DNA of 56,010 bases. Source: a virus (Duplodnaviria; Caudoviricetes). A program made the translations under genes and the position numbers. Every line of letters starts with the position of its first letter. The stretch's first letter is position 1. Below are positions 43,301-56,010 of this stretch, piece by piece. The notes under the pieces are model-generated. The model did not search any database and was not told where the DNA came from. It saw nothing but the letters and a program-made list of their open reading frames with translations. The stretch covers positions 1-56,010 of IMG/VR virus record IMGVR_UViG_3300045282_000096. One strand, 5' to 3'.

Positions 43301-44715
43301 GCCAAGTGTTTGTTTCAACCCGTGGACTTGGAAAAGAGCTTTTACAAAATGAAGAAGCTGTTTCTGACGCCGCCGAACACGGATTGAAATTCTCCTACAC
43401 CGATAGCGAAGCCTATCAACACAACGCCCGCACATTTCTTGAGAAGAACGCCGCACGATTACGCGATGTTCCCGTTCTTGGAAAAGCAACACGGCTCGCA
43501 CGCGACATTCAGCAATGGCGTCAGGAAGGGTTGTGGAAAAACACTCACGATGCGTTCAAAATTATCACCTACAACGATATGGTTTCCAAAGCATTGGATG
43601 GCGCACCACCCGGAACTGATGTAAAGGCTGTCAAAGAGAACATCGCATCATTTTTGAACGACGCTTATGGCGGTCAGGAATGGCAAACCAAGTTTTGGTT
43701 GGACCCCGGCACGAGAAAAGTGCTGTCGAGATTCTTCCTTGCTCCCGACTGGACGCTTTCCACCCTTCGCAGCGTCCCTGGATTATCTGATGTTGCCTCG
43801 ACCGTGCGAGAGCAGGCACCTCGCATTGCCGGTAGAGAATCGTTTCCAACACCAAAGGAAGGTCTTGCTGGCGCTGGCAAACGACTCCGCTTTTGGGGCA
43901 CCGAAGTTGCAGCCTTGGCAATGGCTACTGCCGCCGCTCAATACGCAATCTACAAAGCGTTTGGCGACGACAAGAAAGGAGACAAGGCTTTTCCATGGGA
44001 CAATGAGTTGAATCAGAAGATGCGTGTCGATGTGACGCCGCTGATGAGGAAACTTCCATGGGCCGATCCTAAAGACCCAACACGTCACTATGTCAACCTT
44101 GGCAAGCGACCACAGGAGATTCTCAATTGGTTCACCGAACCCGACAAGCAAGTGTTGTCCAAAGCGTCTCGTCCAGTTGCCATGATATTCGAGCAGGTGA
44201 CGGGCAGCGAGGGCGATTTCAAAGCGCCGTGGAAACAAGACCACGAAAGTTTTATGGAGAGCCTCCCATCACGCGCCAAGGCCATTGGCACTGAGGCGTT
44301 GCCGTTTACCTTTCGTGGAAATCAATTCGCGCTCTCTGCCCCCGTTCGCAAGGGCATGACCAAATACAAAGCACAGCAGGCTTATGAAAGCGTGTTCGAA
44401 CTGGCGACCAATCCCAATCGGATTAAATCTCTGTTGCGTGGCCAGCAACCGTCAGAAGGCACGTTGTCTGAAATGACCAGTCAGATCACCGACGCCGCCA
44501 AACGCAACGGTGTGCCTGCCGAAGAAGTGTTAAAGCGTTCGCTGTCGGTTGTTCGCGGTCATCATTATGACGAATTTTTCAAGGCGTTCAGTAAAGGCGA
44601 CCGCAAGAAGATGGATGAGGAAGCGAAAGCACTCATCACACTTGGCGCAACCGGGCGTGGAATTGAAGAATCAGTTAAGCGCCGGTTGGAGTTGCAGCCG
44701 GTGGCACCTGAGTGA
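40345..44715 (+). CDS. Giant internal virion / polyvalent ejection protein with zincin (HExxH) domain
   Basis: 1456 aa; repeated FTEEDF N-terminus; AHEIGH...ELIADYF. Confidence 0.7.
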   Translation: MAFNFTEEDFAPKSKFDFTEEDFKPSGLPKFSSDLALIPPTEQDTQEALAQSHPLTALSKPIVNLIPKIGQETMGRILSLPAALARQRIEETPDEIIETPEGSTAVAPKQPALEAVAKAVPSDKAVAVATGVQHAAADTANFFTSPIGIATLGIGSLPAAVGRTVALGFAAQMAKDVPEIAKQLGEELGKPEDQRDYEKISELTANAVANTTFVGLGVKHGLAEPVAGKLGALPSEQTAVIPTAQPKEENASTQQKAAEIYGDVLPQPRQGEGEVPIKEGESRVQLQTEGGIQKEVTPATTLENVIRDPNAKANNHNSTEAGMAVKSVDDLEKLAALREQLYKERQDLLEQVRTETDPAKKESLMNQALILSNKLQLPREAIEVATNTGGWAEEAGKTELGERPLDWKKNPEVANWLEKNSKRIGTSFERPKEAAPTETVLASQTTPTHGLPVGVPDRGPTFAADLMEASRQLGALVRSRATLRPGVLGQFVRTKLAGIKQADKIEVGDIRNQNTVAHEIGHSLDGILWPQINFGESQKSLAARVGTGTPKEITSELTKVSELMRGPMTGSKGHVAYRKRATELIADYFSLYAHDRDRAAAMAPKFTKGFEASLAKDQNTADVVKGVVSGNVIPKPPDPTLKKQLAGITGTPPQPGTALPGQVPAAPVLPPPARERVAAVAAEGLVKDAVRTFESKVQKARIVGDNWRKLVGSQSDRNDVGAFVEGIGNLEKPGDTIDRVRTRMTPDKERLAKDYRFRQELERQEINKYLKDSEEGEYLKFLEDYLGHFYVDNAAKRQAAVSRWAKESPHAKQRKLPTLKEAVDMGLTPITQDPAVTYELNSRINWQVATNRKFVAKLKDIKTGAGQDVVVPAKDAPAGWEVTNNPLIQRVYARQTPSGLMLWRGGAAIHPDIWRSARQILEAPQSGDLGKAYDAINGFTRANAFAFSLFHDLTLRSAAVGSQSTLANPLRGLVRLFERHPITGERQVFVSTRGLGKELLQNEEAVSDAAEHGLKFSYTDSEAYQHNARTFLEKNAARLRDVPVLGKATRLARDIQQWRQEGLWKNTHDAFKIITYNDMVSKALDGAPPGTDVKAVKENIASFLNDAYGGQEWQTKFWLDPGTRKVLSRFFLAPDWTLSTLRSVPGLSDVASTVREQAPRIAGRESFPTPKEGLAGAGKRLRFWGTEVAALAMATAAAQYAIYKAFGDDKKGDKAFPWDNELNQKMRVDVTPLMRKLPWADPKDPTRHYVNLGKRPQEILNWFTEPDKQVLSKASRPVAMIFEQVTGSEGDFKAPWKQDHESFMESLPSRAKAIGTEALPFTFRGNQFALSAPVRKGMTKYKAQQAYESVFELATNPNRIKSLLRGQQPSEGTLSEMTSQITDAAKRNGVPAEEVLKRSLSVVRGHHYDEFFKAFSKGDRKKMDEEAKALITLGATGRGIEESVKRRLELQPVAPE
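41093..41233 (+). CDS. Overprinted 46-aa basic protein (MPALSKKQQKFMAM..., DUF3008-like)
   Basis: AAGGAAG RBS before the ATG; N-terminus matches the MP.KS..QQ.FM phage small-protein pattern. Confidence 0.55.
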   Translation: MPALSKKQQKFMAMCYHNPGRAKGKCPSKKVSHEFSYKPKGGYKKK

Positions 44716-44845
44716 TGATTTCCTTAGGAGGGGTTTTACCAAACTCAATTCTGTCGGCCACAGTCCTAAGAAACGCTGAATCTCTTGGATCTTTTAAGCA
44801 CCACGCAAGCCCCCGAAGTCGGTCGATAATCTCTTGGTCGTTCAT
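44675..44845 (-). CDS. 56-aa hypothetical protein (MNDQEIIDRLR...ADRIE)
   Basis: Read manually. Confidence 0.45.
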   Translation of the reverse strand: MNDQEIIDRLRGLAWCLKDPRDSAFLRTVADRIEFGKTPPKEIITQVPPAATPTGA

Positions 44846-44847
44846 AT

Positions 44848-44878
44848 AAAAACCGCGCTACCACTCAGTAGCGCGGAC
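44848..44878 (-). terminator. Intrinsic terminator
   Basis: CCGCGCTAC-TGAGTG-GTAGCGCGG-TTTTT. Confidence 0.75.
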
Positions 44879-45007
44879 TGTTGCTTTCCCTCTATGCACA
44901 CCGTTCTTCTATGACTAGACGGTTGGAGACTCTCAAATAAATCCTCGCCTATCAAGCATTTTGTTCTTGCAATTTGCGCCATGATTTTGTAACAATTCGT
45001 TGCAGTG

Positions 45008-45110
45008 ATTCCGGCCATTCACAAAATCACTTTTACCGAGCACCGTATCTTGCGGGGGCGCTACTTCGATTGCGCTTTCTCCCTTGGCCGGGATAGATGC
45101 GGTGTCTCGG
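45008..45110 (+). ncRNA. Crossing-helix structured RNA leader
   Basis: P1 45009-17/45085-93, P2 45036-50/45095-110, inner hairpin GGGGGCGC/GCGCTTTC. Confidence 0.55.
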
Positions 45111-45119
45111 GAATTTTAT

Positions 45120-45219
45120 GGGCGAGTAGCTTAATTGGTAGAGCGCAGCGGTACTTAATGCGGGAGAAATCCGCAAGATTCCGGTGCGGTTACGGGTTCG
45201 AATCCCGCCTCGTCCACCA
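45120..45219 (+). ncRNA. tRNA-like RNA (100 nt) with extended hairpin instead of an anticodon loop
   Basis: GGGCGAG/CTCGTCC-A-CCA, TAGCTTAATTGGTAGAGC, CGGG-TTCGAAT-CCCG. Confidence 0.8.
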
Positions 45220-45237
45220 TTTACAGAAAGGACCACC

Positions 45238-45513
45238 GTGACCCTCGCTGAACGCGACCGCAAACTCAAATGCCTCGAAGACATTCTCGAACAACCTCGC
45301 AACGATCAAAACGTAGTAGCCGTCGCGCTGTTCAAAATCTGGCACGACGCGCTGTGGGAAGTGTCCGACGACAGCTTTGATGAATTCACACAGAACGAAT
45401 TCGAGATGAGCGAGGTTGATGCGTTCATCATTATGAAAGCTGCGGCAAGCGCCGGTCAATTTCCTGAGTATGAAGCGGAGAAGATTAACGCGGAATTTGA
45501 AAGGTTGGGATGA
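45238..45513 (+). CDS. Small helical DNA-binding-type protein (paralog 1)
   Basis: LW....SFDEF...EF.MS. Confidence 0.55.
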   Translation: MTLAERDRKLKCLEDILEQPRNDQNVVAVALFKIWHDALWEVSDDSFDEFTQNEFEMSEVDAFIIMKAAASAGQFPEYEAEKINAEFERLG

Positions 45514-45785
45514 GCAACGAAGAACGACACAAAGAACTTACTGAAAAATTGAAAAAGGCGGCAGATGGATTTGTTTCATCAACCATCAAGATGGGAGACG
45601 CCTTAAAAGAGTTGGAAGACGACGGTCATTGGAAAGACACTCACTCATCGTTCGACTCTTTCTGTAGAGACACTTTTGGATTTGATGAACAAAAAGCTAG
45701 AATCATTATGCACGATGCGGCGATTCTGAAACACGATCCATCAAGAATTTTGGACTGCATCGGATTTCAAGAACCCACCAACTGA
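45510..45785 (+). CDS. Small helical DNA-binding-type protein (paralog 2)
   Basis: G.AL..L...GHWK..H.SF..FC...FG. Confidence 0.6.
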   Translation: MSNEERHKELTEKLKKAADGFVSSTIKMGDALKELEDDGHWKDTHSSFDSFCRDTFGFDEQKARIIMHDAAILKHDPSRILDCIGFQEPTN

Positions 45786-45786
45786 T

Positions 45787-46653
45787 GTGAAGTCACTAAC
45801 AGCTTTTTCAGAACGAGTTGCGTCCAAGCTCGACCGTCAAATAAGGTCCAAATGGAAAGATTTCGAAAACTGCTCGATAGAACTTGGAAACCTTCTCACT
45901 GAATATCGGGACAAGGGTTATTGGAAAAAACATCACTCCACGTTTAGAGACTACTGTGAGTCGATTGGAATTAGCAAAACTCATGTTTATCGGCTTCTTC
46001 AATGTTCAGGGATGGTTGAAGCTCTGCCAGATAATCTGAAAGAAAAAATTATCCAGCAGGCCCAAGCCAGAGTGCTGATCGATGTTCCAGAAAAAGATCG
46101 TCCAGAGGTTATACAAAGAGCGGAAAAGAACGGGGATCTTACTCCCAAAAACCTCACGCTGGCGCGTCAACAATTAGAGCAAAGTCATCACACCGAAAGT
46201 GTCCCCAAAGGGGACAAACGAGTTTCGGTAAAACCAGAGCCTAAAACACTCAAAAAGGTGTATTATGATGAAATTGGAATCCCCCTTCCCGACGACGCAA
46301 TTCCTTATTGGGAACGCCGCCAAGAGGTGCAAGATGTTTTGACCCAAATCAGCAAACTAAAATCCATCGTCGTCACTGGTCGTGAAGCGCAGGACCACCA
46401 GTGGTTAAAGGTGAGCAATTCCATTGCTGACACCTTTGATTCATTGCGCTCTTTAATTAGTGAAGCTAAACCATATGCGGTCTGCACGACATGCCAAGGT
46501 GTTCCATCAATGAGCGAAACTGGATGCAATTTCTGTCGTTCAACCGGCCTAATTTCCAAGTGGCAATGGGACACCCAGAGCCGCAAAGAGATAAAAGACA
46601 TGATGCTGATGCGTGCTGCCGATCTTAAAAAGGAGAGAGAAAATGTTCATTGA
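45787..46653 (+). CDS. DNA-binding protein with the same N-terminal domain and a C-terminal Zn finger
   Basis: G..L...R..GYWK..H.TF..YC..IGIS...YRL; PYAVCTTC.G..GC.FC..TG. Confidence 0.65.
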   Translation: MKSLTAFSERVASKLDRQIRSKWKDFENCSIELGNLLTEYRDKGYWKKHHSTFRDYCESIGISKTHVYRLLQCSGMVEALPDNLKEKIIQQAQARVLIDVPEKDRPEVIQRAEKNGDLTPKNLTLARQQLEQSHHTESVPKGDKRVSVKPEPKTLKKVYYDEIGIPLPDDAIPYWERRQEVQDVLTQISKLKSIVVTGREAQDHQWLKVSNSIADTFDSLRSLISEAKPYAVCTTCQGVPSMSETGCNFCRSTGLISKWQWDTQSRKEIKDMMLMRAADLKKERENVH

Positions 46654-48274
46654 GCGAGAGTACCAAACGAAGTGTGAGAACGCCATTTTCGAAGCGTGGA
46701 AAAAGTTTCAATCTACACTTGTCGAGATGGCCACTGGCTGCGGCAAGACCATTATATTCGCCAAGGTCATCAAGACAATGGCCCCGCGCCGCGCACTGGT
46801 GCTCGCCCATCGCAATGAGCTAATCGTTCAGGCAAAGGAGAAGATCGAGGCTGTCACCGGACTAAGTTGCCAGATTGAAAAGGCCGAACAATACGCGAGC
46901 ACCAACATCTTCGACCGCAGCCCGGTCGTCGTGTCCTCCATTCAAAGCCAGATTTCGGGTGATGCACTTCACCGCCGTTACATGCGATTCAAGCGTGATG
47001 AATTTGGCGTGGTGATTGCCGACGAATGTCACCACAGCACCTCCGCATCATGGAAAGAAGTCATCGGCTATTATCTCAGCAACAAGGAAACGAAGTTGCT
47101 TGGTGTCACTGCGACAGCAGATCGTTCGGATGGCGCTGCCCTTGGCCAGATGTTTCAATCGTGCGCATTCAAATACGGAATTCTGGACGCGATCAACGAC
47201 GGCTGGCTGGTGGACATTACCCAGCAGTTCGTGTCGGTAAAGTCGCTGGACTTCTCTCACATCAGGACGACGTGCGGGGATCTTAACGAAGGCGATCTGG
47301 CGAAGGTCATGGAAGCAGAGGAAAACATTCAAGGCGTTTGCCAGCCGACGCTGGAGGCAATTTTTGGCCTTGCGCCAAAGACTTTGAGCACGGTGCCTGT
47401 TCCTCAGTGGCGTGAGTATTTGAAGGCACTCAACAAAGTTCCACGTAGAACCATCGTGTTCACCGTGTCGGTGGCTCAAGCTGAGATGTGCGCGAACATC
47501 TTCCTACGTGCCATGGACGGCGTTGAGTGGGTGTGCGGTGAAACCAACAAACGGAAACGCGCCGACATTTTGAAACGATTTCTCATTGGAGAAACGTCGG
47601 TGGTCGTCAACTGCGGCGTGCTCACCGAGGGCTACGACAATCCTCAAGTGGAATTGATTTCAGTCGCTCGCCCCACCAAGAGCCGCTCTCTCTACTGCCA
47701 AATCATTGGGCGAAGCACACGCACATTGCCGGGGATCGTGGATGGTATTCCAACAGCAGATGATCGGCGCAAGGCGATTGCTGACAGCGCAAAACCCTTT
47801 TGCCGCATCCTGGATTTCGTTGGCAACAGTGGTCGTCACAAGATGGTGTCGTGCGTTGATGCTCTTGGCGGTCACGTCAGTGAAGCTGCTGCCGAAGCTG
47901 CGAAGAAAAAAGCGATGGATGGTGGCAAGCCGGTTCGCATTATGATCACGATGACTAATGCGGAGATTGAATTGGAGCGCAAGCGAGCAGAGGCAGCAGA
48001 GCGTGCGCGATTGGAGAAGGAAGCGCGGCGAAGTCACTTGGTTGCACGTTCAAATTACTCAACTCAGGACGTTGATCCATTCGGAAACACCTCAAAGATT
48101 CCATTCACCTCCAGAGTGTCACGCGATGGCCGCGCATTCTCCGACAAGCAGTGCAAGGTGCTACGCATCGCTGGCTGCGACCCAAACAAAGTCGCGTACC
48201 GACAGGGACAGGCAATCATCGCCAAACAAATTGCGAAGTGGCAGGCGGATAAAGATGCGAGGACGGCAGCATGA
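46643..48274 (+). CDS. Superfamily 2 DEXH helicase
   Basis: ATGCGKT, DECHH, GVTAT, LTEGYD.P, QIIGRSTR; AGGAG RBS. Confidence 0.92.
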   Translation: MFIEREYQTKCENAIFEAWKKFQSTLVEMATGCGKTIIFAKVIKTMAPRRALVLAHRNELIVQAKEKIEAVTGLSCQIEKAEQYASTNIFDRSPVVVSSIQSQISGDALHRRYMRFKRDEFGVVIADECHHSTSASWKEVIGYYLSNKETKLLGVTATADRSDGAALGQMFQSCAFKYGILDAINDGWLVDITQQFVSVKSLDFSHIRTTCGDLNEGDLAKVMEAEENIQGVCQPTLEAIFGLAPKTLSTVPVPQWREYLKALNKVPRRTIVFTVSVAQAEMCANIFLRAMDGVEWVCGETNKRKRADILKRFLIGETSVVVNCGVLTEGYDNPQVELISVARPTKSRSLYCQIIGRSTRTLPGIVDGIPTADDRRKAIADSAKPFCRILDFVGNSGRHKMVSCVDALGGHVSEAAAEAAKKKAMDGGKPVRIMITMTNAEIELERKRAEAAERARLEKEARRSHLVARSNYSTQDVDPFGNTSKIPFTSRVSRDGRAFSDKQCKVLRIAGCDPNKVAYRQGQAIIAKQIAKWQADKDARTAA

Positions 48275-48777
48275 CTTGGGTTCGAGTTACCAAACAGTTC
48301 CCTTGTGGGATTTGCAAGCGTCCCGACTGGTGCACTTACTGCCCTGACTCCAAATCGTGGTGCTGCATGAGGGTCCATTCTGCGCGCCCGGCAAAAAATG
48401 GGGGATTTTGGCATAGTTTGGGAGAAAAACCCACGTTTATACCTCGCCCCGCGCCCGCCGCGCCTGAAATCGACGCTGGTGCCCTCATGCAACGCTTTCG
48501 GTCGAACACCCGGCCTGAACACCTCGACCGACTATCGAGAAACTTGGGTGTCTCGACCGACTCTTTAACCCGCACGGGTTGCGCGTGGGCGGGTTGCCAT
48601 AACGCTTTTGCGTTTCCCATGTTCAACAGTGCTGGTCATGTGGTTGGAATACGCCTTCGAAATGATCGTGGTGAAAAATGGGCCGTGCGTGGTGGACATG
48701 AGGGGCTTTTCATTCCCGACTATTTGGTTTCACGATTGACAAACGGTCACTTAAAATGGGAGAGTTGTTCAGGCTAA
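48271..48777 (+). CDS. DnaG-type primase, N-terminal half (zinc-binding and N-terminal catalytic part)
   Basis: CGIC..PDWC...C.R, FPM....G.VVGIRLR...G.K...G...GLF. Confidence 0.75.
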   Translation: MTWVRVTKQFPCGICKRPDWCTYCPDSKSWCCMRVHSARPAKNGGFWHSLGEKPTFIPRPAPAAPEIDAGALMQRFRSNTRPEHLDRLSRNLGVSTDSLTRTGCAWAGCHNAFAFPMFNSAGHVVGIRLRNDRGEKWAVRGGHEGLFIPDYLVSRLTNGHLKWESCSG

Positions 48778-48862
48778 GAATGAGTGCTAGAAGTTTCAGA
48801 ACTGTCAACGGCGCAATCTTCACCGATTGCTCATTCTTAGCCGAATCCGTTGGCAGTTTTGA
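48772..48862 (+). ncRNA. Crossing-helix RNA leader of the endonuclease
   Basis: 14-bp P1 48772-85/48829-42 and 16-bp P2 48796-811/48847-62, with G-U pairs. Confidence 0.65.
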
Positions 48863-48884
48863 GGTTTCAATTCAAAGGAATCCA

Positions 48885-49394
48885 ATGTCAAAATTTATTG
48901 ACCTTAGCGGTCAAACTTTTGATTGTCTCAAGGTAATTAAAAGAGGTTACAACACCCGAAAGGGAGCGGCTCAGTTTTGGTGTTTGTGCTCGTGCGGAAT
49001 TGGGGAATTAAAAACTTCTCGTGGTTTGTTAAAAAAAGATTCGAAGCGCTGCTTGTTCTGTAATGGTAAAGAGCACTCCATCAGAACAAAAACAAGGAGC
49101 ACTCGTCATGGGCATTGCACCCACACCAATCAATCCCGTGAATATAAATCGTGGGCGAGCATGAAAAAACGGTGCTTGAATCCCAACGATTCCAAATTTG
49201 ATGACTATGGTGGGAGGGGAATAACTATCTGCGAGAGTTGGTTGAAGTTTGAGAACTTTTTTGCCGACATGGGAAATAGGCCAGCAGGTCTTACGTTGGA
49301 TAGAATAGATAACGATGGAAATTACGAACCCGGAAACTGCAAGTGGAGCACATGGAGCGAGCAACAGAAAAATAAAAGAGCCGCGAAGTTATGA
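48885..49394 (+). CDS. HNH-like homing endonuclease inserted into the primase
   Basis: AAGGA RBS; MSKFIDLSGQTF, W.C.C.CG, YGGRGI.IC, LDRIDNDGNYEPGNCKW. Confidence 0.88.
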   Translation: MSKFIDLSGQTFDCLKVIKRGYNTRKGAAQFWCLCSCGIGELKTSRGLLKKDSKRCLFCNGKEHSIRTKTRSTRHGHCTHTNQSREYKSWASMKKRCLNPNDSKFDDYGGRGITICESWLKFENFFADMGNRPAGLTLDRIDNDGNYEPGNCKWSTWSEQQKNKRAAKL

Positions 49395-49723
49395 TTCAAA
49401 CAATTTACATTGTGGAGGGCTGCACAGATCTAGCCGCTGCACTTACATTAGGATTAAATGCTATTGGCCGTCCGAGTTGTCGCGGGAGCGTGTCGCATAC
49501 GCAAGTGGCTATCAATCGCCTTCACATTCAACGAGCCATCCTCATCAGCGACAACGATGGTCCGGGGATTGAGGGGGCCAAAGCCCTCACCGGTGAGTTA
49601 CAGATCCCCGTCGCGGCGATGCTGTTACCGGCGAAAGATTTGAGACAGTTCCTGGCCTATGGAGGGACGAGGATGCTGCTGGATAGTTTGGAGCGGCAGT
49701 TGGTGTGGAGGCAACCTGCTTGA
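49391..49723 (+). CDS. Primase TOPRIM half
   Basis: YIVEG.TD, ISDND..G..GA, P.KDLR. Confidence 0.8.
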   Translation: MIQTIYIVEGCTDLAAALTLGLNAIGRPSCRGSVSHTQVAINRLHIQRAILISDNDGPGIEGAKALTGELQIPVAAMLLPAKDLRQFLAYGGTRMLLDSLERQLVWRQPA

Positions 49724-49749
49724 CAATGAGATTTGGTTTGATAAATTCA

Positions 49750-50071
49750 GTGTGTTCAATTGGCACTACGCCGCGAACACATGAAAAACAATTTAGAGAC
49801 GATGGATCAGTCGCCGCAAGGCCGATTGAACACCTACCTAAACATGCGCTCGCGTGGTGGCGACTTCCGTCGAATCTTCCCCGTTGCTTAACCGCTTCGG
49901 GGGTTCTTTGCCGTTTGAACCGTGAGACAGCCTCACGGTATACGGTCGCTGAAACATGCGTGGCCCCGCTTCGGCGGGTGCTGCGGTTAGGGTACGCGAG
50001 GACATACCGACTCACCGGCCAACGAAAGGGAAAAGTTGTGGCTCTTGAACGGGCTACACCTTTTCTTTTTT
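49750..50071 (+). ncRNA. Large structured non-coding RNA or origin-associated element
   Basis: Promoter TTGACA 49721 / TGATAAAT, many helices, a UUCG hairpin and a terminator-like end. Confidence 0.5.
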
Positions 50072-50225
50072 GGCTCTCACTTTATGGATGGCGCATAGCA
50101 GTGTCCCCACAAACCCATTGCCGTGCTTTCAACTCAGGAACACCTGACCAATTGGAAACCATCCTGGTTCTTTCTGGGGGGTCTTTCTGTTTTCTGCTCT
50201 GTCTTTTCTCTTTTACATTCTTCTT

Positions 50226-50522
50226 ATGAGAGGCCTTCGTCACGGTCCTTGGCTCCAATTCGTTCCCATGCACAACGAGATTACGAACATCAATGTGTAT
50301 CCGCACACGCCGGAAGAAATCGAAGCTGAACGTCGGTATCGCATTGAAGAACGCCTTGGAATTATGTGCGGTGCTGATGCTCCGACTGATGAGCAGTTGG
50401 AGATTGCTGTGCGTGAGGCTGATGAGTGGGTGAGAGATTATCTCACTCGCTGTCCTTCCACTCCCACTCGCAGCCAAGCTTCTCCAAGTCATTCTTCGCC
50501 TCAGACGGAGTTCGGCCCATGA
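50226..50522 (+). CDS. Hypothetical phage protein (YR.EERLGI.C family)
   Basis: ERRYRIEERLGIMCG...PT.EQ..IA..EAD. Confidence 0.55.
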   Translation: MRGLRHGPWLQFVPMHNEITNINVYPHTPEEIEAERRYRIEERLGIMCGADAPTDEQLEIAVREADEWVRDYLTRCPSTPTRSQASPSHSSPQTEFGP

Positions 50523-50636
50523 GGAAGCACAGTCGGCCTTTGGATGGTCCGACGCACGTCCAGCAGCCTTCGAATAGAATCCATTTGAAGACGCCACTCC
50601 AGTATTTGTTGGAGGCGTGAAGGTAGCGGGTTTTAC

Positions 50637-51434
50637 TCATCTCGCACACCACGAGCACATTGACGCTCGTTGTTTCCCATTCCGAGTATCCTTCGGCACT
50701 CGACCACGTTCAAATTCCAATCTCAAACCCTTCATGGAAGCAGGCCATGTGTCACGCTGGTCTGAACGAAATGTAAATCCAGTGAATGACTCGTAAGCCT
50801 CCCCTTCCTGCCATCGGTCAGGATGGTCCCGCCAAAGTTCGAACCACTCAATGAGTCGTTGGTAAAAGCAAATATCACAGTCGGTTCGCGGTGGAATCGT
50901 GACTCCTTTTTCTTTCAGATACGACTTCACCTTTTCCAGCCCCCAACCCCAACGAACCAAAGGAAAATCCTGAGTGATGCCATCAATACCTTTCCAGTCG
51001 GTGCCTTCTCGTGGGGCGTCACCAACCACCTCATCAGCACGAATTCCAATGCAGGTTGTGGCTGGAGACTGAGATGCCGCCCACGCCATGAATGGTTGAA
51101 TCTTGACCGTGCGGGTACACCACCTCATTTGGAAATTGGGCAGCGCACGCTGGCGAATTATCAAGTCGTTCAGCGTCGGAGCCGGAACCCGAATCAAGGG
51201 CGCGTTTAGTAAATCCTCCAATCGTTTCCAGTGGTCTATCATTACTGGCAACTCTCGTCCTGTTGGAGTAATCGCAAATGAATAATCGTGGCGAGGCTCC
51301 AGTTCTCGCAAGGCAATCGCCATGGCCGTGGAGTCTTTTCCGCCAGATACCCCAACCAGACGCTTGGTGGGCTGTTTGAATCCGCTCTCTGCCCAATCCA
51401 AGTAACCTTCGGGACTGTAATTCTCTGTTTTCAT
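50637..51434 (-). CDS. PAPS-reductase (PP-loop) family protein
   Basis: SGGKDS, TG.E.P, RWCT...KI.P, GIRADE, PL..WG, DC..C.YQ. Confidence 0.85.
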   Translation of the reverse strand: MKTENYSPEGYLDWAESGFKQPTKRLVGVSGGKDSTAMAIALRELEPRHDYSFAITPTGRELPVMIDHWKRLEDLLNAPLIRVPAPTLNDLIIRQRALPNFQMRWCTRTVKIQPFMAWAASQSPATTCIGIRADEVVGDAPREGTDWKGIDGITQDFPLVRWGWGLEKVKSYLKEKGVTIPPRTDCDICFYQRLIEWFELWRDHPDRWQEGEAYESFTGFTFRSDQRDTWPASMKGLRLEFERGRVPKDTRNGKQRASMCSWCAR

Positions 51435-51622
51435 CCCACCTGTTTCAAGATGCGTTCGAGGGTTTCGAGTGTTCTCTCGGTATCAACATCGCGTCGCTTA
51501 ATGTCGCGCTTCCAGAACCATGTTCGGTATTCATCCCTCAACAATTTCAGCGTGAGAATGTCGTCGGGGGTGAGGGAGACGAATGTGTGGGTTTGGATTT
51601 TGGTTGAGGGTGTGGGGTGCAT
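51431..51622 (-). CDS. Small hypothetical protein
   Basis: Coupled ORF. Confidence 0.4.
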   Translation of the reverse strand: MHPTPSTKIQTHTFVSLTPDDILTLKLLRDEYRTWFWKRDIKRRDVDTERTLETLERILKQVG

Positions 51623-51624
51623 GG

Positions 51625-51963
51625 TTATTTCATGTCTTCGATGACGTGTACGATTTGACAAGCCTGACATTCTTTTACCGGGAGTTCTTTTGAAACCTTA
51701 ATACTCGCTCCGTGATTCAGGCACCACGCCAACCACCATTCACGAGGAGTTCTCCTAACGCGCACCTCCCATGATGCTGTATCAAACAGAATTGAGATTG
51801 AGCCTTCCCATGGGTCCCAGTGTTCGGGGGGTTGGTAAATATCTTTCTTTCTGCGTTGTTCAAGTGGTTTGCTTTCGATGATGGCGTCAATGAGGCCAGT
51901 ATCTTTGAGGTGTTTTAGGATTTGTGAGAGTTGGTGCATGGTTAGTGGAATGTTTCGTCGCAA
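51625..51963 (-). CDS. Hypothetical protein
   Basis: R.PREWW...IVHV.E pattern. Confidence 0.5.
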   Translation of the reverse strand: MRRNIPLTMHQLSQILKHLKDTGLIDAIIESKPLEQRRKKDIYQPPEHWDPWEGSISILFDTASWEVRVRRTPREWWLAWCLNHGASIKVSKELPVKECQACQIVHVIEDMK

Positions 51964-52169
51964 TCGCAGCGTATGTGTGCCATCACTTCCATCATCCAGT
52001 CAAGGCACCACGATTCTTCTTTCTTTGAGGCGATCCCTTGTTCTCCAGTGTGAATGCCTTCCCGGTCGGCAATGACAATGTAGCGAAAATCTTTTTCACC
52101 GAACAACATGAACAAACGCTCGTAATCATCGGGGATTTTGAAATTCGGTTGGATGGTACGGAGGGGCAC
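51942..52169 (-). CDS. Hypothetical protein
   Basis: First gene after the leftward promoter. Confidence 0.45.
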   Translation of the reverse strand: MPLRTIQPNFKIPDDYERLFMLFGEKDFRYIVIADREGIHTGEQGIASKKEESWCLDWMMEVMAHIRCDCDETFH

Positions 52170-52184
52170 AATTCACGAAAGGTG

Positions 52185-52231
52185 TTGACACATAACGGCG
52201 TGATGATAAATACCTAGTAGTTATGTGTCAA
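52185..52231. promoter_or_regulatory. Face-to-face promoters bounded by the perfect inverted repeat TTGACACATAAC
   Basis: Plus strand TTGACA-N16-TAAATA; minus strand TTGACA-N17-TATCAT. Confidence 0.75.
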
Positions 52232-52700
52232 GACGTATTACAGTGCGTCAAAGCGTTCGCCGCTGTGCGAACCCGCCGTGAGGCGTCTTCAACACATAAC
52301 ACCCCGTCGCTCTCCAAGCCTCGGGGATTTTTCACTATGGCAAGGCCCTCAGAAGCTTATCCTGTGAACTTCGGCTGTCATGGAACGGGAGTGTCTTTCT
52401 GTCCTCCCCTAACCTTCCTCAAAGGCATTCGTGCCCTTGGAAACCGGAACATGCTCCAGTCTCAGCAACCCCGTCCTGTGGCCACCCGCTGCCGGTCGAG
52501 ATGCGAATCACCCCACACAAAAGGTCTGTCCGCACAGTGAAAACGTAGCCCAATCTCCGACGCCTGATTACCAGTCAGGCTTGTGCAAGGTTCGATTGGA
52601 ACCGGGTTCGGAAGCTCTCCGACAAAAACCCGGACTTCTTCTAACGTGTGGGGTGTATTCTGCTCCGATGACTTTCTGACTTCGAACGTCCCACTGTTCG
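52220..52700 (+). ncRNA. Extended structured non-coding region
   Basis: Multiple helices, e.g. GAATCACCCCACAC/GTGTGGGGTGTATTC; no convincing ORF. Confidence 0.45.
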
Positions 52701-52976
52701 GAATCGCATCTCCGTCGTTCGCTCACAACCGTGTTCGAGCCAGCGAAGAAATCTGTTCTCTCATTGTGGACTTCGGCAGCACCCTTCTCGGGTCGTGCGG
52801 TCGTGGTGAAAAGATCAGCCAGAAAAATGGGCTTGGGAAATTGTGGGGTATTTGACCACCCGCGCCGGCCCAACGTTTCGGGGGCCAGGGCCGGTATACA
52901 CCCCACGGTTACGGATTTACAAGAGATTCCTTAAGCATGCTTTCTCCGTGACAATGGGCAGGGTTTCTGACAGGGT

Positions 52977-53252
52977 GTGGGGATGGACTCAGAAACGATT
53001 GGCAACGATGACTTGTGTGCATGGCAGGTTGCGCGGGGTGTGACCTGGGTGCAGACTCGCAATCCAAAGCACGCCAATAGGCTGGCAAGGCGACAGGATT
53101 CAAGGCTGGTTGCTCATGGCGTGGCTGGCGGATACCTAAGAACCTTTGAGTTTATCCAACCCCTGTCATGGGCAAGGCGGTTAATCGACCGTTACACTTC
53201 CAATGTCCCAGTCACTAATGACGCGGGAAACTTAATAGAACCCCTCACGTAG
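52977..53252 (+). CDS. Hypothetical protein
   Basis: Protein-like 91-aa ORF (LCAWQV...WVQTR...GGYLRTFE). Confidence 0.55.
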   Translation: MGMDSETIGNDDLCAWQVARGVTWVQTRNPKHANRLARRQDSRLVAHGVAGGYLRTFEFIQPLSWARRLIDRYTSNVPVTNDAGNLIEPLT

Positions 53253-53838
53253 GCGATTTGACATCCTGAACGGGTAAAGGGGCACAAACACCACTTTCGG
53301 GTGAAATCATACCTTCTGCCTTGACCCCAGACGCACTTTGATCAACTGGGCTAACAGATTGTATGGTCGAAATTGGAGCGACTTTTGCCATGGGTGCGAC
53401 ATGGGCTAAGTGTGGTTTTTTCGTGGATTTATGACTTTTGGGATTGTGGCCGAGAAGGGATTGCCAACACTCGAATGCATCCTTGGCTGCACGTGCCCAT
53501 TGAGCAGCTTCTTTTCCGCTCGTGGAAGCAACGCAAGCAGCCATACATCTTCGGTATTGCCTCAGTGAAGCCGATATGAGAGCGGCAATCTCTACTGTTG
53601 CGCTAGGGATTTGACCTGCCTTTTGGAATTCCAGTGCAGAGCGTTGCCGGGCTTGGCGGTTTAGCTGTCGGGCAATGTGACCTTTAATTGATGCGGCCTT
53701 ACCCGTTTCAGAATTGAACGGTGGACGATAACCAGGGAGTATCGGGGGTAATGGCTTGGATGGTAGCGTGCCCTTTGTTTTGGCATTAGCTTGATCGCAC
53801 TTCTCCAATACTTGAAGTTGTCTGTCTCTCGTTTTCAT
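53245..53838 (-). CDS. Putative terminase small subunit-like protein
   Basis: PF.SET.KAA..KG..AR N-terminal motif seen in TerS-like proteins; own promoter TTGACA-N17-TTTAGT. Confidence 0.35.
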   Translation of the reverse strand: MKTRDRQLQVLEKCDQANAKTKGTLPSKPLPPILPGYRPPFNSETGKAASIKGHIARQLNRQARQRSALEFQKAGQIPSATVEIAALISASLRQYRRCMAACVASTSGKEAAQWARAAKDAFECWQSLLGHNPKSHKSTKKPHLAHVAPMAKVAPISTIQSVSPVDQSASGVKAEGMISPESGVCAPLPVQDVKSPT

Positions 53839-53976
53839 CTTCCACACACTAAACACCATTGTGCGAAATATGTCAAGAAAGTATTTGACACTTTTGTGCG
53901 GAGTGTGCTAAAGTGTCATTGTCATGCAAAACACTACTTCAAACGAGACGGCGAACACGGATACTGAGTGAGGATT

Positions 53977-54207
53977 ATGAAAACAAACGAATCAATTGGG
54001 AACATTTCAGCCGAAAAACTCAACCGGGCTTTGCGGCGATGTCACGAACGCCAATTTGCTGGCGAAGATTGGCAGGCCGTTGCAATTGATGCTTGGAACG
54101 AATTTGGGAGTCCCGATGGCGACGAGGTATTTAACTTTCTCACCAGCACGCCAGACCACGGCTGTGATTGCGGATTTTGTGCTCACGCAGCATGGCAAGA
54201 CTACTGA
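53977..54207 (+). CDS. Hypothetical protein
   Basis: GAGGA RBS; CDCGFC. Confidence 0.5.
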   Translation: MKTNESIGNISAEKLNRALRRCHERQFAGEDWQAVAIDAWNEFGSPDGDEVFNFLTSTPDHGCDCGFCAHAAWQDY

Positions 54208-54275
54208 CCTCCCCATTCCACCCCTCCCCAAATGGGGGTGGACTGAGGCGATCGTGCCTTAACGAAAGAATCAAT

Positions 54276-54633
54276 ATGACAACTACCGAACTAAGAAGGC
54301 TTCAACACTTTGTTGGAGCAATCGAACTACAGCCCGAAACAATGCTGGCCATTGCCAAACTCGATCCGAAGTGCGTTGACGCACATTCGACAAGGTTAGG
54401 CATTAACGATGCGGAACCACTGCTTGTCGCCATGGACGGCCTCTTGCGCTACGCCAAGGCATACGAGAAACGGTTTGAGGGCAAGCTGGCGGAGGATTAC
54501 GCCCTTGGTGATTATTGGGTTGATGCAATCAAAGGACTTCACGGCCTGCTTAAGTAATGGGGTAATTGAGGAGATATATCACGCTGCGTTGAAAACCGCC
54601 GGATTCAATGACCAAGGCGAAAGGGGCGACTAA
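54276..54633 (+). pseudogene. Hypothetical gene with apparent frameshift or internal deletion near 54550
   Basis: The frame stops at 54557, while a protein-like continuation (SNGVIEEIYHAALKTAGF) lies in another frame. Confidence 0.35.
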
Positions 54634-54735
54634 CCCAGGACCAGAAAGCGGTTGTCTAGCTCTCGGTAAAATCTTTCGTAGAAACTTCGTAGAAAATCAT
54701 TGACAGAAACTCTCAAATGTGATTTTATTATTCGC

Positions 54736-54897
54736 GTGAAGCTACAGGACAAAGTTAAGAGGCTTAAACCCGGTAGGAGTTTTTATGTAAAGAGCGATAC
54801 GGAGCGCAAAGAGGCGTTGAAGATCGCTGGCATACTGGACTTTAGAATCAGGACCGCTCTCGGGTTGAGGGGTTTCAAAGTAACAAGAGTTTTATGA
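54736..54897 (+). CDS. Small basic DNA-binding-like protein
   Basis: LKPG.SF.V...F.V.RV; TTGACA at 54700, preceded by the tandem repeat TTCGTAGAAA. Confidence 0.55.
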   Translation: MKLQDKVKRLKPGRSFYVKSDTERKEALKIAGILDFRIRTALGLRGFKVTRVL

Positions 54898-55054
54898 TTT
54901 GCTTGGGAGTAAATTCTGGTGACGACCGGCAAGTAAAGACTGCGATAAATACTCCAAAACGCAGTTTAGCGTGGGCCTGCGGGCTGGTTAATGGTCCCGG
55001 TAAAACACTGCGACTCCAGGCGAAGATCAGCACACGCTCTTTAATTTCAAGTGT

Positions 55055-55222
55055 ATGAAAATCTTCATCGTCATCTCCTCTGGCTGCGTCTCTGCCGTTT
55101 ACGCTGACTCAAACGCGGTTGAAGTGGAAATCATCGACCAGGATTCGCAAGAGGAAGGCGAGCGCGAAAGGCTGTTGACGCGAGAGGATGAAATTGCGGG
55201 GGAATTTGTTAAGGTCGCATGA
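55055..55222 (+). CDS. 55-aa acidic hypothetical protein
   Basis: Read manually: MKIFIVISSGCVSAVYAD..VEVEIID.D. Confidence 0.55.
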   Translation: MKIFIVISSGCVSAVYADSNAVEVEIIDQDSQEEGERERLLTREDEIAGEFVKVA

Positions 55223-55353
55223 AATCTCTAATACTTTACGGCTCACCAACGAAGCTGACCAACTCGCCTGTTGGCATCGACCAAGCCCTTGTGAAGGCTG
55301 GTCAAGGAATGATGGAAGGCGAAACCGTTCTTAATACCGTTCCTATAGAATAA
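55219..55353 (+). CDS. 44-aa hypothetical protein
   Basis: Coupled between neighbours. Confidence 0.35.
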   Translation: MKSLILYGSPTKLTNSPVGIDQALVKAGQGMMEGETVLNTVPIE

Positions 55354-55355
55354 TT

Positions 55356-56010
55356 ATGAACCCACAAACCACACCACAGGCACAGACTGCGCCCACTTCA
55401 AGGGGCATGTCCAAGAGCGACTTCGAAATGCTCTTGGAAAAGGACGTTAAAACAAGTGTTTGGATTGAGCCGTTCGGCGCTCAACCCGGCGACGAAATCA
55501 AAATGAGCGTCCCGCTCATTCGTCGCTACATCGCGGTACCAGCTTGGGACAAACAGAAGCAGGAGGAGATTCAACCAAGCGACGAGGAATGCGTAAAGTT
55601 CCTGATGCTGTGCAACGCTCGCAGGCTCAATCCGTTTGAGGGTGACGCCTACATGATTCCGTTTTACGACACGAGCAGCGGCAAGCACAAGTGGAGCCTA
55701 ATTACCGCACACAGTGCATTTCTCAAGCGAGCCGAATTGCATCCGTATTACGATGGAATGGAAAGTGGGATCATCGTTGAGCGCAAGGGCGACATTTTAG
55801 ACCTTCCCGGCGACTTCCGGTTGGATAACGACAAGCTGCTTGGAGGCTGGTCAATCGTTCACAACAAAAACCACACCCACCCAAGCATCAAGCGAGTGAA
55901 GCTCACAACCTACGTTAAGTCCTTTGGCGTGTGGCTTAAAGACCCAGAAGGAATGATTTGCAAAGTGGCCGAAGCTCAGAATGTGCGTGACAGCTTCCCG
56001 ACACTTATCG
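55356..56010 (+). CDS. bet: Bet/RecT recombinase, 5' part (continues at base 1)
   Basis: FLMLC.AR.LNPF..DAY.IPF...I.AHSAFLKRAE.HP.YDG..SG...L.GGW..V. Confidence 0.85.
   Translation, partial: MNPQTTPQAQTAPTSRGMSKSDFEMLLEKDVKTSVWIEPFGAQPGDEIKMSVPLIRRYIAVPAWDKQKQEEIQPSDEECVKFLMLCNARRLNPFEGDAYMIPFYDTSSGKHKWSLITAHSAFLKRAELHPYYDGMESGIIVERKGDILDLPGDFRLDNDKLLGGWSIVHNKNHTHPSIKRVKLTTYVKSFGVWLKDPEGMICKVAEAQNVRDSFPTLI
55884..56010. repeat. Terminal direct repeat, copy 2
   Basis: Identical to 1-127. Confidence 0.97.

Follow-up and report, generated by a model that had tools for sequence, protein, structure and literature searches.

In the complete record of a virus of the Caudoviricetes (IMGVR_UViG_3300045282_000096; 56,010 bp with direct terminal repeats, analysed at full length and called the window here), a primase-like gene is split by a putative free-standing HNH homing-endonuclease cassette, which carries two long inverted repeats that interleave on the + strand (positions 48772-48868) directly before the ribosome-binding site (RBS) of the endonuclease gene. 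We conclude that this leader element is real, structured and unusual, that it has so far gone undescribed, and that it belongs to the mobile HNH cassette. The crossing helices probably act as a cis-acting RNA leader of the cassette and control the timing of endonuclease production. A preliminary description of this DNA, made from its letters, had noticed the helices and placed them in a family of four co-transcriptional switches or attenuators of the phage; it had overlooked both the mobile cassette that splits the primase-like gene and the stop codon of the upstream gene half within the first helix.

The arms of the two helices follow each other in the order P1a-P2a-P1b-P2b. P1 pairs 48772-48784 with 48830-48842 (13 of 13 nucleotides (nt) complementary; 15 pairs if G-U is allowed), and P2 pairs 48796-48811 with 48847-48862 (16 nt, 88% complementary, both mismatches being G-U on the + strand), so that the two long interleaved helices stand as first described. 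With G-U pairs allowed, P2 extends to 22 pairs (48790-48811 with 48847-48868, five of them G-U), its 5' arm then consisting of the core 48796-48811 and a G-U-rich extension at 48790-48795. P1 and P2 have no nucleotide in common, and the linker from the 3' arm of P1 to the 3' arm of P2 is only 4 nt long. The P1 5' arm (48772-48784) holds the TAA stop of the upstream gene half (48775-48777) and, two bases after it, an ATG (48780-48782) in the frame of the HNH open reading frame (ORF), a frame that stays open as far up as 48702. An inner hairpin of 6 bp with a 6-nt loop (GCAATC/GATTGC, 48813-48830) is placed between the 5' arm of P2 and the 3' arm of P1 (48830-48842), and the P2 3' arm (48847-48868) includes a U-run (48857-48860) followed by GAGG. 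The endonuclease RBS lies directly downstream of the helices and, like the inner hairpin, is present as had been reported; it consists of the Shine-Dalgarno (SD) sequence AAAGGA (48874-48879) and the canonical HNH start ATG (48885-48887), altogether 48874-48887 on the + strand. HNH homologues align from residue 1 of this canonical start.

The whole genome was scanned on both strands for pairs of ungapped helices in crossing order, with scores of 3 for GC, 2 for AU and 1 for GU pairs and ranking by the weaker helix. The pair at 48772-48868 was the top crossing pair on either strand (score 34; runner-up 25). None of 60 dinucleotide-preserving shuffles of the genome reached this score (best pairs 21-28), and no single helix as good as P2 (score 47) occurred in them (maximum 44). 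Shuffling the 180-nt leader gave the same result, with 0 of 2000 sequences reaching 34 (maximum 24). The reverse strand of the leader had a crossing score of only 16 compared to 34 on the + strand, and the predicted fold of the + strand differed from its shuffles with z = -2.80 (0 of 200 as good) compared to z = -2.18 for the - strand (5 of 200 as good). This strand asymmetry, together with mismatches that are G-U only, argues for an RNA of + sense, in agreement with the preliminary description. A scan of the whole window against Rfam at gathering thresholds found one tRNA elsewhere and nothing at the leader, while an E-value scan of 48600-49550 returned only OxyS (14.2 bits, E = 3.7). No C4-type, HEARO, ribozyme or riboswitch family of Rfam matched at the leader; C4-type elements had been named at the outset as an example of a described family. 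The exact P1 pattern did not occur in the viral contigs searched, and a search of the leader by blastn-short and nhmmer against 92 loci gave just chance words of 12-13 nt.

The split gene lies directly downstream of a helicase gene. Its N-terminal half (48271-48777, + strand) has a translation of 168 residues with a Cys-rich zinc-binding motif, and its C-terminal, Toprim half (49391-49723, + strand) has 110 residues and matches Toprim_2 with E = 3.7e-4, just under the Pfam cut-off. In 11 of 11 relatives examined the two halves are one continuous ORF and the insert is absent. The fused protein of the closest relative, phage G001, has weak matches to primase/helicase and primase PHROGs and reads, uninterrupted, ...GGHEGIFVPNGSARTAYVVEGPTD...; the window protein reads ...GGHEGLFIPD, followed by 18 foreign residues and a stop, and is taken up later by MIQ and TIYIVEGCTD.... 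Residues 1-150 of the upstream half align to the uninterrupted relatives and homology stops near 48720, the inserted DNA providing the last 18 codons and the stop; the Toprim half is 89% identical to the continuous gene of the relative. Junction alignment places the insert of ~670 bp relative to G001 at about 48721-49393 (+ strand, boundaries +/- 10 nt), with a G+C content of 0.41-0.45 inside and 0.53-0.57 in the flanks. It encodes an HNH homing-endonuclease-like ORF of 169 residues (48885-49394, + strand) that matches phrog_374, 'HNH endonuclease' (E = 1.3e-51), as well as five other PHROGs of the HNH/restriction kind; searches of Pfam and PDB gave no match, so the HNH name rests on PHROG annotation. 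The stop of this ORF and the ATG of the Toprim half overlap (ATGA). A lower-depth contig from the same sample has 235 nt in place of 902 nt, i.e. lacks the insert, and two further runs contained 151-nt pieces of the 3' junction with 0 and 3 differences, the leader occurring in neither. No RNA run was found to contain this sequence, the four runs compared being of DNA. Beyond the region of homology the host halves have only an 18-residue tail and a 3-residue head, which is too short for split inteins, and the cassette is therefore not embedded in an intein. Judged by sequence comparison, the insert is a free-standing homing-endonuclease cassette that made the primase-like gene a 'gene in pieces'. 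As a separate observation, the helicase gene and the upstream primase half (47459-48621) have only 67-69% DNA identity to G001, with 86-98% identity in the DNA around them (45253-45514, 49463-49725, 50238-50634, 51941-52700); the low-identity tract could be a co-conversion tract that arrived with the endonuclease, or ordinary mosaicism.

Leaders of HNH homologues were taken as the 160 nt before the start and the 20 nt after it. Of 160 loci, 116 offered sufficient DNA upstream and a match that began no more than 12 residues from the N-terminus, and removal of 15 duplicates left 101 distinct loci. Crossing helices were not a feature of the family as a whole, a score of at least 22 being reached by 2 of the 101 leaders compared to 0-3 per shuffle replicate. 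Only one leader, L094, reached 28, a score that no shuffle attained, whether among the 1010 of the pooled set or among 2000 of its own sequence. L094 belongs to the closest HNH homologue (49% identity, from another metagenome), and its leader is unrelated in sequence to that of the window. Its P1 comprises 11 perfect pairs (249-259/299-309 of that locus), and its P2 comprises 14 pairs (279-292/322-335), of which two are G-U in the sense strand. Counted from the start codon, the P1 5' arm lies at -104 to -94 in L094 and -113 to -101 in the window, the P1 3' arm at -54 to -44 and -55 to -43, and the P2 3' arm at -31 to -18 and -38 to -17, respectively. In both cassettes a GC-rich P2 core is directly followed by U4-5 and GAG, P2 ends 5-6 nt upstream of the SD sequence, and the host stop is followed after 1-2 nt (1 nt in L094) by an ATG in the open HNH frame. 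When extended, P2 of L094 lies within an irregular hairpin of ~35 bp, in which SD and AUG are paired at probabilities of 0.89-0.98. The true recurrence of the crossing layout is thus in the closest homologous cassette and not within the window phage.

The last 14 codons of the gene upstream of the L094 cassette, which is resolvase-like (phrog_5702), occur twice in that locus (163-216 and 955-1000; 9 of 14 identical, 13 of 14 similar); one copy closes the host gene; fused to the HNH ORF at its end, the other copy overlaps with the ATG of the following gene. The position of the cassette between the two tail copies indicates that the leader belongs to the mobile unit. Strong single helices were enriched in the homologue leaders, with 12 of 101 scoring at least 28 compared to 0-4 per shuffle replicate; among them, L107 has a 16-bp hairpin whose 3' arm carries GGAGG and the ATG, and in L103 and L029 a hairpin is followed by TTGACA. 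Two candidate features were discarded. A conserved N-terminal extension of the HNH protein does not hold for the family, since in most homologues stop codons occur a few codons before the shared Met. The P1 5' arm shares 12 identical nt with the 3' coding end of another HNH homologue (L119), by estimate about what chance gives for a search of this size.

Folding predictions suggest two alternative states of the leader. For 48740-48900, the energies with P1 or P2 forced were -41.7 and -41.9 kcal/mol, respectively, and for 48760-48915 the ensemble difference was 2.1 kcal/mol in favour of P2; the two states are predicted to lie within 1-2 kcal/mol of each other by nested models, in which they are mutually exclusive. 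The inner hairpin forms in both (pair probability 1.00). In folds of successively longer prefixes P1 formed first, before the P2 3' arm was made, P2 prevailed once 48862-48870 had been added, and P1 together with a downstream hairpin became competitive again in the prefix ending at 48895. With P1 enforced, the P2 3' arm paired with the SD/AUG region of the HNH gene (48877-48891), leaving the AUG unpaired with a probability of 0.07 and the SD guanines with 0.1-0.3; with P2 enforced, these values were 0.59 for the AUG and 1.0 for the A-run of the SD sequence. Blocking the 5' side up to 48785-48790, which mimics a terminating ribosome, resulted in a P2 probability of 1.00. Given the 4-nt link and a P2 of more than one helical turn, the two helices would not be able to form fully at the same time. 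The earlier proposal of a switch that times a potentially toxic gene is thus reasonable for this site, with its two states within 1-2 kcal/mol, but does not extend to a family of four members.

Tentatively, and with somewhat less than even confidence, we propose to read the leader as a translational switch triggered by the ribosome. P1 (48772-84 : 48830-42) would close first in the course of transcription and lock the stop of the upstream half together with the adjacent in-frame AUG, while the free P2 3' arm would pair with the SD sequence and AUG of the HNH gene (OFF). To reach the stop of the upstream half, a translating ribosome would have to melt the P1 5' arm; the P2 5' arm would then be freed and capture the P2 3' arm (16-22 bp), and the HNH RBS would be released (ON). 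Alternatively, the ribosome might restart at the AUG at 48780. Translation could in this way be relayed from the upstream half to the endonuclease and on to the Toprim half, the last step because of the overlap between the HNH stop and the ATG that begins the Toprim half. What we infer here is the order of folding, the part played by the ribosome and the assignment of the ON and OFF states. In the HNH family the start lies within -4 to +2 nt of an upstream stop in 28 of 85 loci, which is the commonest layout, and the proposed switch fits both this start/stop coupling and the RBS-sequestering hairpins and stop/start coupling described for phage homing endonucleases in a review (PMC2988022).

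Several results weigh against such a switch. In a longer context (48700-48930) P2 was dominant with a probability of 0.96, and at equilibrium the window RBS had a value of 0.46, which shuffled sequence in the upstream region gave as well (0.46); because the RBS is no more paired than in the shuffled case, the OFF state rests on an assumed kinetic trap. The folding programs score nested structures only, so that a coexistence of P1 and P2 would have escaped them. The stop codon could lie within P1 by chance (roughly estimated at 1 in 10), and in L094 the host stop is located 30 nt upstream of the P1 5' arm, which means that a stop inside P1 is not common to both cassettes. The open frame upstream of the HNH start is not exceptional, since one of at least 61 codons was found in 18 of the 101 homologue leaders, and an in-frame start beside the upstream stop was in modest excess (9 of 42 long-gap loci compared to 3 of 42 for a control frame). 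RBS sequestration across 102 leaders of the family was not significant (0.414 vs 0.440, p = 0.11). A covariance model built on the single sequence of the window in its P2 state had no match in 82 loci with default filters; with filters off, a search of 32 of those loci (71,955 bases) gave 14 matches of E = 0.32-8.4, none of them in L094. The likeness of the two leaders is therefore one of architecture, recognized by eye and by helix positions in two sequences. HNH relatives, including those of L094, reached at most about 50% protein identity over their full length in the viral, metagenome and genome collections searched, and the leader had no detectable nucleotide relatives; without such close relatives no covariation alignment is possible.

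The leader appears to belong to a kind that is already known, that of RNA structures controlling homing-endonuclease genes. The cases treated in the review include RBS-sequestering hairpins before I-TevI, I-TevII, I-TevIII, T4 segB and Aeh1 mobE (PMC2988022). Like the hairpins of the I-TevI/mobE type, the element of the window is a very stable RNA structure directly before a homing-endonuclease start, on a transcript reading through from a host gene, and SD and AUG are predicted to be paired in L094 and, in the window, in one of the two states. Each of these known elements consists of one hairpin, which an internal late promoter relieves, whereas the window has two interleaved, non-overlapping long helices and an RBS that is not sequestered at equilibrium. 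An internal promoter whose transcript would lack the 5' arm was not found in a scan for sigma-70-like sites, the only nearby site (48729-48757, 9 of 12 positions) lying upstream of both helices.

The split gene itself has parallels among genes in pieces, for which the same review names Aeh1 nrdA with mobE, T4 gene 39/60 with mobA and gene 43 of phage 25 with seg43(25) (PMC2988022). As in these, an HNH gene at a conserved site splits a gene of replication or nucleotide metabolism that is continuous in relatives, and stop/start overlaps suggest coupling; unlike in these named cases, the host gene of the window encodes a zinc-finger/Toprim primase-like protein.

A further comparison is offered by the plasmids IncI-alpha and IncB, where translation of an upstream ORF and its termination open an inhibitory helix, which allows long-range pairing near the next RBS and thereby translation. 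The pseudoknots involved are short (few pairs), activating and opposed by antisense RNA. Such pseudoknot-dependent translational coupling is described for repY-repZ and repB-repA (PMC8053102). The window may resemble these systems, in that its stop lies inside the P1 5' arm and P2 is predicted to form when this arm is blocked, a feature that L094 lacks; it differs from them in its helices of 13-22 bp, which are more likely alternatives than parts of a stable knot.

A stronger version of the proposed translational switch would be topological and reset by the ribosome: two long helices without common nucleotides would exclude each other only by interlocking, and the first ribosome to finish the upstream half would flip P1 to P2, licensing the endonuclease and, via the ATGA overlap, the downstream half. 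Stop, restart, switch, endonuclease and restart would then form a portable 'gene-splitting kit' present in at least two very different cassettes. We consider this version unlikely. If it held, the selfish cassette would bring its own relay that keeps both pieces of the broken gene in step. Homing endonucleases that split essential genes must avoid killing the host. To our knowledge, the way in which gene pieces are co-expressed while the nuclease is kept low is understood in a few T4-type cases only, all of them single hairpins. If the crossing layout is functional, it would represent a different solution to this problem and a compact natural example of a translation-reset RNA switch.

The main rival to the switch is a transcription attenuator, a real possibility if one that we find rather improbable. 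The GC-rich core of P2 (48802-48811 : 48847-48856) with the following UUUU would form an intrinsic terminator and restrict read-through into the gene of the endonuclease, the earlier P1 would tie the loop of this terminator into a rigid helix and so be a topological anti-terminator, and a ribosome on the P1 5' arm would decide between the two. The succession of P2 core, U4-5 and GAG in both window and L094, an A-rich sequence preceding the 5' arm, and the formation of P1 ahead of the P2 3' arm in the prefix folds all speak for it. L094 is the closer fit to a terminator, its GC-rich P2 stem of 14 bp (-27.1 kcal/mol) being part of an imperfect 22-bp hairpin that has a loop of 13 nt and U5, compared to the 10-bp core, UUUU and 35-nt loop of the window. 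Moreover, intrinsic terminators in the 5' regions of T4 mobE and segF, with ~30% termination at mobE, are among the cases reviewed (PMC2988022). In common with these terminators and with trp and ermC, there is a GC-rich stem with a U-run before or within the endonuclease gene, and which folding prevails could depend on where a ribosome stands. However, the 35-nt 'loop' of the window P2 has substructure of its own, so that the terminator-like stem has a branched loop, the U-run is itself paired in extended P2, and a terminator scan called only the weak inner hairpin. Terminator-like structures in 44500-56010 were as frequent as expected from shuffles (15 compared to 13.9 +/- 3.8). Classical ribosome-sensing attenuators such as trp and ermC have one strand in common between their alternative helices; P1 and P2, unlike classical terminator/antiterminator pairs, have arms without any overlap. 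Finally, there is no promoter-like site in 48900-49391 that could re-supply the Toprim half, and efficient termination would therefore cut off a product that is apparently needed.

It is quite unlikely that the repeats have no function as RNA and are relics, or act as DNA in the form of an endonuclease binding site or of cruciform-prone sequence at the edge of the cassette. Besides the lack of a covariation alignment, such a reading is supported by the resemblance of the P2 5' arm to the sequence of the 5' junction (12 of 16 positions) and of a 7-nt stretch to the uninterrupted target in the relative, the latter seen by eye and at chance level by estimate. There is also a precedent at the DNA level, as I-TevI binds an operator that resembles its homing site (PMC2988022). 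Against it stand the strand asymmetry described above, with G-U as the only mismatches, which favours RNA, and the recurrence of the layout in L094 with unrelated sequence.

For a processing or stability element the chance is slimmer still. Here the 22-bp P2, corresponding to two helical turns, would serve as an RNase III-type site or 5' stabilising hairpin and separate the mRNA of the upstream half from that of the HNH and Toprim genes, in the way known from intercistronic regions of phages. RNase III requires about two helical turns, which P2 provides in the window and the irregular ~35-bp hairpin in L094, both ending at the same short distance from the SD sequence. Precedents within the review are a very stable hairpin just upstream of, and not covering, the seg43(25) RBS, and RNase E processing of segB, segG and mobE transcripts (PMC2988022). 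Such an element would, however, leave P1 without a role.

We give hardly any credence to a recoding signal, in which P1 and P2 would form an H-type pseudoknot stimulating a -1 frameshift, or a hop, into the HNH frame to yield a zinc-finger-HNH fusion. The HNH frame is indeed the -1 frame of the upstream half, open from 48702 with a 75-nt overlap, and A_AAA is found at 48753-48756, 10 nt before extended P1; but the 0/-1 overlap at 48702-48774 contains 0 canonical X_XXY_YYZ heptamers, the HNH frame of L094 is +1 and not -1 relative to the upstream gene, open HNH frames are common enough among homologues (18 of 101), and the 4-nt loop between the 3' arms of P1 and P2 would, by geometric estimate, be too short to span a stem of 13 bp. 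Equally far from probable is a self-splicing group I intron or other ribozyme, with the crossing helices as a P3/P7-type pseudoknot: as in many phage introns, the HNH ORF does interrupt a replication gene at a conserved site, and by our own reading one possible U|...G| splice pair restores a linker of exactly the length in the relative, but neither Intron_gpI (RF00028) nor any ribozyme family matched at E up to 10 in 48600-49550 or the whole genome, only ~165 nt are non-coding and all of these lie 5' of the ORF, 3' core elements would have no place because the ORF stop overlaps the next ATG, the helices, with no P4-P6 between them, far exceed P3/P7 in length, and the L094 cassette, near the 3' end of its gene and flanked by the duplicated 14-codon tail (9 of 14), has a free-standing layout.

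The preliminary description had reported the same topology at three other sites of the phage. Site 2 proved to be nested and sites 3 and 4 scored low, so that the supposed family of four switches falls apart into unlike elements. At site 2 (45008-45105) the crossing score of 25 was reached by 16 of 60 genome shuffles. Its alignment with G001 supports a nested consensus fold of 22 pairs, 7 of them with compensatory changes (45040-45105, + strand); of the P2 drawn earlier (45040-45050/45095-45105), 10 of 11 pairs persist, 4 of them through double changes, and the P1 drawn earlier keeps 4 of 10 pairs in alignment register. By this pattern of substitutions, site 2 appears to be a real, covarying structured RNA hairpin that does not cross. 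The conserved stem-loop, with its inner helices, stands in an otherwise poorly conserved intergenic stretch. Site 3 (52220-52332) had a crossing score of 15-17 and site 4 (54903-54968) one of 15-16, both below the best chance pair of every shuffle. Three copies of a 9-nt motif, ACACATAAC/GTTATGTGT, occur at site 3 (52188-96, 52220-28 and 52292-300), all invariant in G001, and surround two facing promoter-like sites, of which that on the - strand matches at 11 of 12 positions; site 3 reads as a set of DNA operators at facing promoters. The region of site 4 had no match in G001, and its helices are at chance level. The association of the four sites with -35 boxes and U-tracts was likewise not above shuffle expectation, promoter-like sites in 44500-56010 numbering 9 compared to 8.4 +/- 3.2 in shuffles and terminator-like structures being at the level given above. 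The record is thereby corrected: there is no four-element family, one of the other sites being a separate covarying RNA and another a promoter/operator region.

The surroundings of site 3 (52182-52340) have the appearance of a phage developmental-switch region. The -35 boxes of the facing promoter-like sites form a 15-nt inverted repeat, and the third copy of the 9-nt motif is also found there, as is a hairpin at about 52254-52271 with one compensatory change relative to G001. A terminator-like hairpin with T5 (52311-52332) stands just before an ATG at 52338.

Close to site 2, a SAM-I riboswitch aptamer was matched below threshold on the - strand at 44942-45042 (27.1 bits compared to a gathering threshold of 44.4; E = 4.9e-4 in a 401-nt search). 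About 66 nt beyond it on the same strand is a strong terminator-like hairpin (44876-44853, 10 bp and a T-run). The central 68 nt of the match are almost invariant in G001, where its weak P1 stem is not kept, and we take the match as a probable false positive lying over a control region that is conserved. At 45120-45216 (+ strand) lies a tRNA-like gene with an encoded CCA end (Rfam tRNA, 42.3 bits), in which 37 nt including a GCGG/CCGC hairpin take the place of the 13-nt anticodon stem-loop expected by the model; it is absent from G001, and ARAGORN called no tRNA anywhere in the window. Within the replication module, a gene on the opposite strand (50637-51434, - strand) matches phage PAPS-reductase-like proteins (phrog_424, E = 4.1e-31).

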